Source: a virus
Taxonomy: Duplodnaviria > Heunggongvirae > Uroviricota > Caudoviricetes
Length of the DNA: 11,837 nt
Strand: one strand, 5' to 3'
Virus record (IMG/VR): IMGVR_UViG_647533159_000005
Of the stretch, positions 3,001-9,000 are shown one piece after another (positions within the stretch are counted from its first letter, which is position 1; each line of letters starts with the position of its first letter). The position numbers were made by a program.

Positions 3001-6000
3001 GACGGAACGCGAAGCGCGTAACCGTTGCCCGTCCGGTTGTGTCGCTGTATTCGCCGCCCGTATTCGTCAGGAGGTGCGCCATGATTAACCTGTCACTTAC
3101 CGACCTTAACCGCATTCAGTTTCGTGAGAAATTCACCGGGCAGCTACTGGTCAATGTGGATAAAGGTCGCGTGGTGTGTAATTACCACCTGCCAGATGAA
3201 GCAATTGTCGCAACAAGGGAATCATTACAGGAACTCGCAGAACGTGCCGGAATGATTAACGCGAATATTCAGGGGGTGAGACATGTGCAATAACACCCGT
3301 CCGGACGCAGCTGCCGAAGCTATCAGAACGCTGATGCACGCGCTGATTGATATTTCATGCACGGCAGCAACCGCAGAAAAACACATTACCAGAGAGCCGG
3401 AATATACAGGGGCGATAATCCCGCATTCGCTGGCTTACGCACAGCTTACCGCTGATATGGCGCTGAATGAGGCTAAAGCCATCCTGATTGCTGATTGTGA
3501 AAATGGCGGGGGCGATTATGCGAAATAAACATGATATTGAAGACCTGGCATTTGAAGCCCTGCACTCTGCGAAAAAAATCAGGGAAGTCGTCAATATGTG
3601 GATGAACAGCCTTAGCACCGATAAATCCGATAGCAGAGAAGAAATTCTTATTTCTTTGTTGTTAGACCTGGCAAATACACAGGTTTCTCTGACATCTGAT
3701 ATTGAGCTCGCCGCTAAAAAGCTGCCTCTGGAGTAAAAAAACATGAAAAAGAAAAATTCTGGCTTTACTGCCAGCGGCCCCGCTCGGCCTGAAATCCGCC
3801 CCGACGATATTTTCAAAGATAAATACGGCGGACGAATAACGATAAAAACCGTTGACGATTTTCGTGTGACTTATATCCGCGAAGGTTATGCGCATCCCTG
3901 CGTGTCGTCTCATATGCGCTTTGAGAGTGAATTCACCCTGGTAAGCAAAGCACCACCAGCGAACTTAAGCGACATCGACAGAATCATGCGCGTTACAGGT
4001 ATGGAACGCATTAAGGCAGTACGTGAAATTATTCGTGAACGGGGAAAGGCAAAATGAAACTGGCACCGAACGTAAAACTGTTACCGAAAGATAAAGGCGA
4101 GGATGCAGTGATTTTTGCGGGGGATGACGCATACAGCCATGCAGAGCATTACATGCAGGGCGGAGAAGCCAGAAAGCGCGGCGACAAAATACCACCTGTT
4201 TATCTCGGACGGCGTGACCTGGGTAATCTGGAAAACCTGCGTATTGTGGATGAGGGTCGGTCACGCGCCATCGTCAGACGTGCCGGAAAACTGGATGACA
4301 AACTGGCGCTACAGATTGAAACCCTGCTGGCAGTGGCTGGTGTTAAAGAAGCCTGTTTTTGTGACGAGAACGGCGATTTACTGGAGGACTGGACACCACA
4401 GCTTGCCCGACTGAAAGACGAATACGAGCGCGGGGAAAGTCTGGTGTTGCCCTTAAAGAAAAAAGCCACAGGAAGCTATAGCGATGATGAATTAAAGCCC
4501 CGCGTTGAAAGCCGCGCCGATGGTGTTTTCTGGGTAACGCCAAAAGTTGACAAGCAGTCAGGCGAAATTATCCGGCCTGAGACGTGGTTATGTTCCCCGC
4601 TTGAACTACTGGGAACGGGGACAATCGGTAAAGAGCATTACCGCGTGATGCGCTGGAAAAAGCCACACAATTTCACGAATACAGCACCGGAAAGGCGCAC
4701 GCAGACGCGTTAAAAGATGCCTGGACAGAAAATCACGGGGCGGCGGGTCGTGAATGGGTTAAATGGCTGGCAGACCACCAGCAGGAGGCAAAGGACACGG
4801 TAAGGTCATGCCGTGAACGGTGGCGCAACCTGATACCGGAGAGCTACGGCGAGCAGGTACACCGCGTGGGTGAGCGTTTCGCCATACTGGAGGCCGCGCT
4901 TGTGCTTTCCGGTCATGTTACTGGCTGGGATGAGCAGGAATGCCGCGATGCCATTCAGCATAATTTTAATGCCTGGGTGAAGGAATTCGGCACGGGTAAC
5001 AGGGAGTTTAAACAGATGGTTGAACAGGCAGAGGCTTTTTTAGCGTCGTTCGGATTCAGCAGATACCTTCCGTGGCCCAACACCGACGAGCGTGATTTAC
5101 CGATTAAAGAGCTTGCCGGATACAGAAAGGGGAGTATCAGAAACGAAGATGACGAGTTTCGTTTTTACACGTTCCCGCATGTATTTGAGGGTGAGATAGC
5201 ACAGGGATTTAATCCGTCTCACTTTGCCCGCGCGTTGAGTGCTGCCGGAATGCTGGAAGCGGGTAACGATCGCCGTTACAAGAAAAAGGCGCTCGGCAGG
5301 ATTGGGGGGAAGCAGCATGTTTTTTACGTGCTGATGTTCCAGCCAGAAAGCGAAGAAGATTAATTTTTTCTCGCGTGTAGGGTGAAAATTTTGCGGGTTA
5401 TGCGGGTTATTTCTGTGGATAAATCAGTATCCATATGATTATTAAAGGAATGACAGGAAAATCGTAACCCGCAAAATACCAAAAATAACCCGCAAAACGG
5501 CAGTTATAACCCGCAAAAGTGCGATTATAACCCGCAGAATTTCACAGTATAGGGTGTAAACAAGCGTAACTATCAACGTTAAAACCGGAGAACAGACAGC
5601 ATGACAGCACAGATAGCGGCTTACGGGCGGCTGGTGGCTGACCCGCAGTTAAAGACCACCAGCAAAGGGACACAAATGGCGATGGCGAGTATGGCGGTTC
5701 CCCTGCCGTGCAACCAGGCCGATGACGGAACGGCGACGATGTGGTTATCCGTCCTAGCGTTTGGCAGACAGGCCGACGCACTGGCAAAGCACCACAAAGG
5801 CGAACTCGTGAGCGTGGCGGGTAACATGCAGGTAAGCCAGTGGACAGGCCAGAACGGCGAAACGCGGCAGGGCTGGCAGGTCATCGCAGACAGCGTAATC
5901 AGTGCGCGAACGGCGCGACCGGGCGGCAAAAAAGGTCAACAGGGCCAGGCTACTGACGCACTGAACAGGGCAAAACAACAGGCGGGAAATGATGACCCGT

Positions 6001-9000
6001 ACGGGGATAACATCCCGTTTTAATTCACAACAGCGAACAGAGTAATTACAGGGGAAGGCATGACAACGCTGACCATTAACCGAAAACCGAAAGGCATTTA
6101 CGGCACGCAGTCAGAAACGACGCAGGCGGCACAGCAGCAGGATAAAACCACATCGGCGCATAAAGTGATACCCGGCAATCAGAACGCACAGCAGAAGCCC
6201 ACAGGGGCGACACCGTGGCGGCATATGACCAAACGCCAGCGTAAAAACCGCAGACGCGTTAACCGCCTTATTGAATTGTGGCCTGACTTATTCAACAGGG
6301 AAGCACCGAAGCCGCTGAAGGTGGGGATATTTGACGACCTGATGCGGGATATCGCCGCCAGGGGGCTGACATTCGGGCCGGGGGCATTACGTGCGACGCT
6401 GGCATCCTATGCGCAGTCTCCGCGCTATTACCGCGCCCTGATAGCTGGTGGCGCACGTTACGACCTGAAAGGCCAGCCATGTGGGGAAGTGACACCACAG
6501 GAACAGCAGGAGGCAGAAACGCGGCTGGCAGCACTGAATGAAAAGCGCAAACGTCAGGCGACAAAGGAGAGGACAGGCGCATGATTCGTGACAGCAAAGC
6601 GGAAGAACTGGAGACTAAAGGCCTGTACCGGAGAGCGGCGGCGCGGTGGGCTGAGGTCATGCAGCTGGTGAACACCGATAAGGAGCGCGAACAGGTGGCA
6701 AAGCGTCGTGCGGAATGCATCCGCAAGGCAGCACGCCCACCCGTTATGGCGGATAACTTCGGGGCGCTGAAAGAGGCTGTAAACCGCACTCATGCGGTGA
6801 TGGGGATGGAAGACGCGGGTAAATCCGTCTGGCGGAACTACCCGAAGCAGCCTGGCAGCAACCAGTGATGCCGGATATTATCCTGAAAAATGATCATCAC
6901 TCCCGTGGGCGGATAACATAAAATCCTGCATATGCGCACATACACAGACGAAGCCGGAACAATCCGGCTTTTTTTACGGGTCCTTCCGGAGGGGGGGGCC
7001 TTACCGTGGGGCGACGGACGCGCGGGAATCGCCAAATTTTCGCATTTTTATCGGTCATCACCACCAGCGCAATTTATTGATAATGAAGGTTAAAAAAAAT
7101 TCCCGGTGTCGAAAACGCCTGTTTTTTGTTCATCACTGAATCATGCGCATCATGATACCAAGATACCCGGTATTGCTGCGTGATAACCCACAGGACTGGT
7201 GGCGATGCGTTATGGTCCGTGCGTTGCCATCTTCCTGGCCTGATGGCATTATCCGGCATGAACGAGCGGTTATTCTCCGTACTCTTAATCGTTGTTCATG
7301 GTTATTTGCTTTGTGGTAGCTAACATTTCCTGATGGTTATTATCCTTCTGCCCCGTAATCACGGGGATTTTTTTACCCGCGTTCTGCCGTTCTCCCCTGT
7401 GCTGTTGGTAGCGTCACGATGTGTCACGGCATGTCACCATCACGTCACGCTGATTGCGAAAGCCAGGATTAACCAGTACCGGAACGGGTAGCCCGATGTA
7501 TTGTTACCGTCCTGCCGGCTGGTGGAGTAATTGATAACGGTTATCATCAACGGGAGGGGCAGATCAAATCCCTGTGGCCCTGGATGTCAGGGACCGCCTG
7601 CCAACCCTTCTTCGCATCGCCGCAGGTTCGAAAACTTTTTTTTGGGAAGGTGCGCACAGAGTTGATAGATAAAACCTATCAGAGAAAATCACGTCAAACC
7701 CGCGTCATTGCTGGCATCGTTAAAAAAACTCACTCCACCAGCAGACTAAAAAACCGCGATTTTTCCGGTTTTATGGGCTGAAAAGGGGCTCCCTAAAAAA
7801 CATCTCTCACACTGCCGGACGGAGACGGAGATTTTTACGGGTCCTTTCCGGAGGTCTGAATACCGGGGGTACGAATACGCGCAATTCTTAACTGTTTATG
7901 AAAATTTTTAGGGGAAAAGCGTGTCGGTACTTCTCGCGCATAACTGTTTGTTTTCATTAAAATCGACAATCGGAAACATACGACACCATAACACCGGAAA
8001 ATCCCGTTTTTCTGGCGTTTCATGTCGGAGGTGGTTTTTGATGAGGATTTGATAGATGAATGTTAACAAAAAGAGACTGGCGGAGATTTTCGGTGTTGAT
8101 CCGCGCACAATTGAACGCTGGCAGACGCAGGGCCTTCCTCATGCATCTGGTGGCGGAAAAGGCGTGGAAGTGACTTTCGACTCTGCACAGGTGATCGAAT
8201 GGTATGCCCAGAGGGAGAAGGACATCGAAAACGAAAAACTCCGCAGGGAGCTTGATGATTTACGTGCTGCTGGTGAATCAGATTTACAGCCAGGCACAAC
8301 AGAGTACGAACGCTACCGTCTCACCAAAGCACAGGCGGACGGGCAGGAACTGAAGAACGCCAGAGAGACAGGGGAAGTTATAGATACTGAGTTCGCACTC
8401 TGTGCGCTTCGTGGTCTGGCGCGCCAGATTTCTTCGATCATGGATAGTTTACCGCTCACAATGCAAAGGCAGTTCCCCGCGATGACTCCGGCAATGATCG
8501 AGGGCCTGAGGAAAGAAACAGCACGCGCCTGTAATGCGTGCGCTAAAACTGCCGATAATCTACCCCGCATTCTGGAAGACTACCTGATGGAAACAACCGG
8601 AAACGTGCCGGAGAAATTACGGCAACAGAAAGGTGAGCGACAACCGCGCAATTATTGAACAAAACAGAGAAAGGATCTGATAACGTCATTTTTGGCCCAA
8701 AATGACCACTGTCAGATCCTTTCTTTTTTTGATGATTTTACGATTAAACAATGAGTTACAGAGAAGAAGAACGGATCTGACTTTTCCCGAAAAATTTTCA
8801 TAAACAGTTAAGAATTGCGCGTACCCGTCCCCCCGGCGCTTAAGGTTCCGGAAAGGACCCGCAGGAAATAGCTACCGTAAGGCGTAATTAAATATCCGGG
8901 GATGTGCCACGGAACAGCCTGCTGAATACAGGTCAGCGTGATGACGGTAAATAAAGAGAATATACGAGAAGGAAAAATATTAGTTTAAAAACTAATGTCC

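Follow-up and report, generated by a model that had tools for sequence, protein, structure and literature searches.

The acidic C-terminal tip of the single-stranded DNA-binding protein (SSB) of E. coli is a hub for many partners, among them the chi subunit of DNA polymerase III, PriA, DnaG, RecQ and ExoI. Mobile elements may bring an SSB of their own with a host-compatible tip. This is the case for the Ssb encoded in the leading region of the F plasmid, which presumably covers the single-stranded DNA (ssDNA) of the plasmid's own transactions; F-type plasmid SSBs are closely homologous to E. coli SSB, and their expression sets in early once ssDNA has entered by conjugation. Here we analyse an ssb gene of another type of mobile element, a phage-inducible chromosomal island (PICI), which is found on a stretch of 11,837 nucleotides deposited in IMG/VR as Caudoviricetes virus record IMGVR_UViG_647533159_000005 (the whole stretch is called the window in the following). 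The protein encoded here, referred to as the island SSB, differs from the F-plasmid Ssb in being only distantly related to E. coli SSB and in belonging to a PICI replication operon.

A related gene is known from EcCICFT073, the prototype Gram-negative PICI of E. coli CFT073 (C_RS06995, WP_000126698.1), which RefSeq annotates as single-stranded DNA-binding protein. Its place is the same as in the window, past pri-rep and the iteron origin region and before a PerC gene, and the two proteins are 70% identical overall, with near-identical OB domains and a shared ...DDPYGD(D/N)IPF tip. However, the EcCICFT073 protein has another linker version (136 aa), its pri-rep is intact and of the D5_N/DUF5906 type whereas that of the window is of the DUF927 type and broken, and it retains upstream of ssb a small phrog_1231 open reading frame (ORF) that the window has lost. 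The EcCICFT073 fragment with pri-rep and ori, described as the rep gene together with the ori site, drove plasmid replication in DH5alpha (PMC6092414). Moreover, SSB has been grouped with Primase and DUF5906 as Gram-negative PICI replication genes that colocalise with mapped origins (PMC10111431, 2023).

The PICI ssb is hence an already known and annotated component of the replication module, and an SSB annotation at this place adds nothing new. A preliminary description of the window had held that satellite-encoded SSBs are less commonly noted than primase or helicase genes. This view does not survive the comparison with EcCICFT073, the RefSeq annotation and the published categorisation, nor the finding that ssb-homologous DNA occurs in 1,821 of 5,426 complete E. 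coli genomes (34%), nearly always on the chromosome. The useful part of our analysis is rather corrective and concerns a deletion in the initiator gene: as read from its sequence, the window is a decaying, replication-defective copy of the island in which ssb is still intact.

An SSB-family protein with a conserved acidic tip

The ssb ORF begins with ATG, stops with TAA and encodes a product of 140 aa with the C-terminus ...NDDPYGDNIPF (QQAGNDDPYGDNIPF); its coordinates and those of all other features are collected in Table 1. The product matches the Pfam SSB family (PF00436) with an E-value of 3.1e-16 and 59.8 bits (cut-off 26) over profile positions 4-101 of 104, passes the curated cut-off of 53.95 for NCBIfam TIGR00621 ssb with 61.6 bits, and matches PHROG 44 (single strand DNA binding protein) at 1.2e-39. 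A sequence search of the PDB returned 26 distinct solved SSB sequences, the best at 1.5e-10, with E. coli SSB as a weak match (9e-5). With 30 family members as input, AlphaFold2 modelled residues 1-103 as an OB barrel (pLDDT 78-93) of five to six strands in the order strand-strand-strand-helix-strand-strand; the strands comprise residues 2-11, 16-19, 25-36, 44-54, 69-82 and 88-101, with a helix at 55-62 between strands. When this model was compared with the PDB by Foldseek, the best 50 matches were all bacterial SSBs (E 4e-9, probability 1.00). The best structural matches were SSBs of Firmicutes and their phages (for example PDB 5XGT, 7YM1, 5YYU, 6BHW), with a target TM of 0.78-0.81 and 27-29% identity; SsbA and SsbB of S. 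aureus and SsbA of B. subtilis came first. The SSB-like protein proposed for this place is therefore confirmed by the Pfam, TIGR00621, PHROG 44 and PDB matches, and the OB fold, on which the proposal had been made to depend, was found by the profile search as well as by AlphaFold2 and Foldseek. The product of 5601-6023 is a genuine member of the bacterial/phage SSB family.

The residue-level comparison with E. coli SSB (178 aa; PDB 1EQQ, 1EYG) reveals a similar organisation in spite of only 24% identity over the OB domain. W48, F54 and W81 of the island SSB align with W54, F60 and W88 of the E. coli protein and are invariant in an alignment of 30 island SSBs. The position of E. coli W40 is taken by N38, so three of the four ssDNA-stacking aromatics are kept, and H55 of the E. 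coli tetramer interface corresponds to L49. In both proteins, an acidic tip with final -IPF comes after a disordered linker. However, the island linker has ~27 residues compared to ~55 in E. coli SSB, three residues are missing from the loop that joins strands 2 and 3, the tip reads GDNIPF instead of DDDIPF, and the island SSB is encoded by a mobile element and not host-essential. Taken together, the profile score, the OB fold, three of four stacking aromatics, and the disordered linker with its acidic Pro-Phe tip were all found in the island SSB. PriB, an OB-fold protein without a tail, was rejected as an identification because the linker and the -IPF tip are present.

The tail of the protein combines a variable and a conserved part. 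Residues 104-140 are predicted to be disordered (AlphaFold2 pLDDT <50), and the linker occurs in three interchangeable versions among close relatives, with protein lengths from 116 to 149 aa. In the tip, D136, P139 and F140 are invariant among 30 sequences and I138 is conserved in at least 90%. A C-terminus of the form [DE]x[IVLAP]PF was found in 102 of 106 cluster representatives; among the last 12 residues, the median number is 3 for acidic and 0 for basic ones. The -PF ending is kept by the relatives from Leclercia and Buttiauxella; divergent or truncated C-termini occur in Pantoea, Rahnella and one Leclercia relative (loci L010-L012). The conserved acidic tail tip that the preliminary description had pointed out is thus present throughout most of the family, and in the island SSB its final -IPF is identical to that of E. 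coli SSB. The tip is likely a docking peptide for host SSB-interacting proteins, and with -IPF conserved in this way it is a reasonable inference that host proteins are recruited through it.

For the OB domain, a median dN/dS of 0.15 was obtained from 112 pairwise comparisons with dS >0.05. This value shows purifying selection, and ssb is not a chance ORF; judged from these substitution patterns, the ssb family is functional and constrained. Residues 93-109 (window 5877-5927), which span the last OB strand and the beginning of the linker, read QVIADSVISAR and then, with less strict conservation, xxRPGG. This stretch is near-invariant from E. coli to Rahnella, far above the rest of the protein in conservation, and is retained even by a 43%-identical relative on a contig of a Fulvimarina metagenome-assembled genome (MAG).

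A protein search with the island SSB gave 754 homologues, mostly from E. coli, and IMG/VR contains 398 relatives, mostly on contigs of PICI-like size (7-15 kb), including 80 loci that encode SSBs 97-99% identical to that of the window. Up to six ssb-like places exist per E. coli genome, where RefSeq annotates them as 'single-stranded DNA-binding protein', and the 3-kb block DUF4222-DUF927-SSB-ProQ-PerC was matched in 1,328 genomes. In 50,697 phage records, no homologue exceeded 31% identity; the best matches were mostly SSBs of temperate Staphylococcus and Streptococcus phages, with 27-31% identity over the full length. These phage SSBs, the Firmicute SSBs and the island SSB are all short (about 130-170 aa for the group), and the host phylum differs. 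Given phage matches of at most 31% identity, a recent capture of ssb from a known helper phage was rejected. Likewise, few matches of ~70% identity were found in the plasmid database, and these were PICI-like circles or insertions; since the one inspected was a PICI-like circle, a link to the ssb genes of conjugative leading regions was rejected as well. According to the similarity searches, the island SSB clade is a lineage of its own that is confined to enterobacterial satellites. One locus (L006, CACSKA010000004.1) is labelled Chryseobacterium sp. and has an ssb of the enterobacterial PICI type (65% identity) behind a Toprim-DUF927 Pri-Rep; because it closely resembles Buttiauxella loci, this assembly is probably mislabelled or contaminated.

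The replication module and its broken initiator

The placement of ssb next to an origin, likewise part of the preliminary description, is well founded. The repeat TAACCCGCAAAA, searched with at most one mismatch, has six copies in the window, all of them within 5389-5539 (chance expectation 0.11), as an inverted pair on one side and four direct copies on the other side of an AT-rich core. The GC content is 0.32 at 5410-5469 compared to 0.55-0.65 in the flanking genes, and the ssb start lies 62 bp past the iterons. The origins of E. coli PICIs have the same layout according to the legend of Fig. 2 in PMC6092414, and iterons flanking an AT-rich core are what the window contains. The assignment of the iteron region as replication origin, made from repeats and base composition, can be regarded as sound. 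In addition, a 14-nt direct repeat (GTGTAGGGTGAAAA / GTATAGGGTGTAAA) at 5375-5388 and 5547-5560 brackets the iteron region with a spacing of 172 bp; it could have arisen by chance or serve as a further site for protein binding.

The absence of a helicase motif from the rep candidate, which had been noticed before, needs to be reinterpreted. The motif is indeed gone in the window, but this is not a design feature that an SSB offsets, because pri-rep is a pseudogene. Its two fragments cover only positions 239-398 and 739-894 of the 895-position PHROG 1139 primase profile. ETEC6335 (locus L001), the closest relative among complete genomes, encodes an intact DUF927 domain-containing protein of 707 aa at L001 7319-9442. 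In the alignment with this locus, the window is without L001 7931-8744, a segment of 814 bp bounded by 12-bp direct repeats TGGAAAAAGCCA, one copy of which is left at the deletion junction (window 4654-4665). The deletion takes out residues ~205-475, i.e. most of DUF927 (167-434 in the intact protein), and shifts the reading frame. The sole P-loop-like motif of the intact Pri-Rep, STAGKT, falls inside the deleted segment. Hence, the helicase motif was not seen because of the frameshifting 814-bp deletion.

With pri-rep destroyed, the origin in this copy has no cognate initiator, so the island is replication-defective, and ssb can be of no use to its replication unless Pri-Rep comes in trans from a related island. 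A functional pri-rep, one of the characteristics of Gram-negative PICIs, is missing from the window and the relatives have an intact gene, which makes the window a degraded member of the group. The island in the window is thus unsuitable as a model of a helicase-less replicon. The deletion junction in pri-rep was in none of the 97 related loci fetched, and the junction between origin and ssb of the window was likewise absent from all of them. The two lesions are thus either private or rare, and that in pri-rep is probably recent.

The second of these lesions affects the small ORF between origin and ssb, which was found in 80 of the 97 related loci and is of the phrog_1231 type in 75. The small ORF, usually a phrog_1231 ORF of 85 aa, is translationally coupled to ssb by sharing an ATGA between its own stop and the ssb start. 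The full upstream ORFs in L001 and in locus P0001 end with ...TTINVK(N/T)GE and overlap ssb, whereas in the window (5549-5604) only the last ten codons are left, at 5572-5604. Overall, the small ORF (for example L001 9628-10045 and L017 13285-13542) exists in at least three unrelated versions, phrog_1231 being the commonest, and the interval between origin and ssb looks like a slot for variable genes. An Rfam scan of the whole window gave no RNA family at the gathering score, so no known non-coding RNA is located at the origin or at ssb. Between 5200 and 7200, 2 promoter-like sites were counted compared to 1.5 expected from shuffled sequences, and 7 terminator-like sites compared to 3.2 +/- 1.8; both counts stay within ~2 standard deviations. 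A weak hairpin at 6001-6018 overlaps the ssb stop.

The gene keeps its place after the origin whatever the genus and whichever of five Pri-Rep architectures it accompanies. Pri-Rep, the origin and ssb come in this order, with ProQ and/or PerC behind them in most loci, in E. coli (EcCICFT073 included), E. albertii, Leclercia, Buttiauxella, Pantoea, Rahnella and a circular Klebsiella element of 22.9 kb that is filed as a plasmid. At least three initiators precede SSBs that are 97-99% identical to that of the window, one of the DUF927 type and two of D5_N/DUF5906/Pox_D5 types. The more distant ssb alleles follow two further types, in which a Zn-ribbon-Toprim part is fused to either helicase core. 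Near-identical SSBs behind unrelated Pri-Reps imply that ssb has been exchanged independently of the initiator and the iterons, and a co-evolution of SSB and Pri-Rep was rejected on the same ground. Such independence suggests a generic activity towards ssDNA and host partners and not a matched pair of initiator and SSB. From these comparisons ssb looks like a generic module, which is among the most conserved PICI genes and can be exchanged across the five initiator architectures.

Proposed role of the island SSB and competing explanations

We consider it rather probable that the gene encodes a working SSB, which is standard in the replication module of enterobacterial PICIs (Pri-Rep, iteron origin, often a small ORF, and ssb), coats the ssDNA of the island and recruits host partners. 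After induction by a helper phage, the rightward operon of the island, which is AlpA-controlled in EcCICFT073, would be transcribed, and Pri-Rep would bind the iterons and open the AT-rich core. The island SSB could then coat the exposed strands and the lagging-strand template, and its -D-x-I-P-F tip could dock those host proteins that read the tip of E. coli SSB, such as the chi subunit of DNA polymerase III, PriA, DnaG and enzymes of repair and recombination. The island would gain an SSB supply of its own at a time when SOS-induced damage and the replication of the helper phage tax the host SSB.

Several findings weigh against this role. The published rep-ori clone is described as rep plus ori, ssb being unmentioned in that description (PMC6092414); if the clone was without the island ssb, the gene is at most accessory to initiation, and ssb is probably an enhancer of replication and not a requirement. 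Furthermore, the searchable literature yielded no experimental work on the ssb of a PICI or another satellite but only the categorisation in PMC10111431, so that the replication role is deduced from where the gene lies and from homology. The protein itself departs from the E. coli model by its 24% identity, the lack of W40 and H55 equivalents, a linker of about half the length and a tip with fewer acidic residues than DFDDDIPF. Finally, the cognate initiator is destroyed in the window and the proposed function is therefore not operating in cis.

This last point could also mean that ssb is, in this island, a leftover ORF of a decaying element and has no role any more. Besides the frameshifting 814-bp deletion in pri-rep, the missing small ORF upstream of ssb and the segments that are inverted or missing relative to L001 fit such a decay. 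However, the ORF is full length, has a ribosome-binding site and shares 97-99% identity with alleles from islands whose Pri-Rep is intact, and the ssb family is under purifying selection. With up to six ssb-like copies per genome, a co-resident related island could give Pri-Rep in trans. We therefore regard a leftover as fairly unlikely, and it would concern the state of this copy but not the nature of the gene. Another possibility, to which we attach a somewhat lower probability still, is that the island SSB mainly manipulates host or helper, its E. coli-like tip competing with host SSB for partners such as ExoI, RecJ, RecQ and PriA. Possible effects would be the shielding of island concatemers or cos-ended DNA from nucleases, a hindrance of helper replication or recombination, or the modulation of defence systems that monitor ssDNA metabolism or phage SSBs. 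Such a role would agree with the lack of any single Pri-Rep type that ssb tracks, but this independence from the initiator is also predicted by ssDNA coating. It would also agree with the description of the pri-rep-ori clone as rep and ori with no mention of ssb (PMC6092414), with the tip surpassing in conservation all other parts of the tail, which are modular, and with the report of a phage SSB-like protein with FDDDIPF tip as trigger of the DRT10 defence system, in which ExoI is a modulator (bioRxiv 10.64898/2026.04.29.721553). That ssb is intact although the island can no longer replicate might be added, but the pri-rep deletion is private to the window and probably recent, and the survival of ssb says little. 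Moreover, no feature of the locus points to a host or helper role directly, and ssb is always located in the replication module beside the origin, not in an interference or accessory region.

A stricter form of this explanation, which we find quite improbable, assumes that the PICI SSB is dispensable for island replication and that its -IPF tip, mounted on a divergent OB core with a short linker, diverts the partners of host SSB. If this was true, the satellite DNA could be protected, the helper handicapped, or a defence that senses phage SSBs or ssDNA turnover triggered or blunted, and it would account for the occurrence of one ssb allele with unrelated initiators and for the retention of the gene in a third of E. 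coli genomes. Almost no credit can be given to the idea that the island SSB is devoted to assisting a single-strand annealing recombinase, in the way that some phage SSBs assist Sak4-type proteins. Its closest phage relatives are the SSBs of temperate Staphylococcus and Streptococcus phages, in which ssb and recombinase genes are neighbours, and Sak4 reportedly requires the SSB of its own phage (PMC5499656). However, neither the window nor the related islands examined gave a match to a recombinase, and the neighbours of ssb are Pri-Rep, the origin, ProQ and PerC.

Gene order and other features of the island

All genes of the window have the same orientation and follow the order int, AlpA, DUF4222, rep, iterons, ssb, ProQ, PerC, Nu1-like, fimbrial, PerC (Table 1). 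A tyrosine integrase at one end, an alpA-type regulator downstream of it and a single orientation are the marks of a PICI, and by this gene content the window is an E. coli PICI. It begins at the ATG of int, hence attL lies outside.

Table 1. Features of the window, positions counted from its first nucleotide
Feature	Position	Strand	Evidence or remark
Tyrosine integrase (Phage_integrase, Arm-DNA-bind_3)	1-1242	+	Pfam
AlpA (PF05930)	1774-1980	+	Pfam
DUF4222 gene	3743-4057	+	Profile scan
pri-rep (DUF927-type initiator/helicase) pseudogene	4054-5363	+	Fragments 4054-4713 and 4866-5363
Left iteron pair, inverted copies of TAACCCGCAAAA	5389-5409	-	Repeat search
AT-rich origin core (55 bp), presumed melting site	5410-5464		Base composition
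Four direct iterons TAACCCGCAAAA, 21-bp spacing	5465-5539	+	Repeat search
Remnant of small upstream ORF, last 10 codons INVKTGEQTA and stop	5572-5604	+	Stop overlaps ssb start (ATGA)
GGAG ribosome-binding site, 10 nt 5' of the ssb ATG	5587-5590	+	Read from sequence
ssb coding sequence (140 aa and stop)	5601-6023	+	ORF list, profile matches
OB-fold ssDNA-binding domain, residues 1-103	5601-5909	+	AlphaFold2, Foldseek, aromatics, dN/dS
Short disordered linker, residues 104-130, modular among relatives	5910-5990	+	pLDDT 36-47, alignment
Acidic C-terminal tip NDDPYGDNIPF, residues 130/131-140	5991-6020	+	Conservation
ProQ/FinO-domain gene, directly 3' of ssb	6060-6584	+	Pfam ProQ 1.8e-24
PerC-family regulator gene, start overlaps ProQ stop	6581-6868	+	Pfam PerC 4.4e-36
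Nu1-like small terminase, full length	8056-8658	+	Pfam Phage_Nu1 6e-68
K88-type fimbrial subunit	9188-9988	+	Pfam Fimbrial_K88 2.6e-52
Second PerC gene, runs off the window end	11529-11837	+	ORF translation; L001 counterpart annotated PerC

Downstream of the origin, the trio of ssb, ProQ and PerC recurs in islands of E. coli O157:H7, E. albertii, Leclercia and Pantoea, with ProQ being RNA chaperone-like. The counterparts of the two PerC genes of the window in L001 are ~42% identical to one another.

The right half of the island differs from that of ETEC6335. Window positions 7132-8072 and 8579-8961 match L001 12157-13557 in inverted orientation only, with 88-95% identity, which points to an inversion or rearrangement relative to ETEC6335. 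The Nu1-like small terminase is consistent with packaging piracy of the cos type. PICIs of the EcCICFT073 type are described as redirecting the helper's own TerS, yet the window encodes a full-length Nu1-like subunit; the region of L001 that matches this gene is inverted and only a fragment. The K88-type fimbrial gene stands alone, with no usher or chaperone gene within the window, and may be an accessory or virulence cargo of the island.

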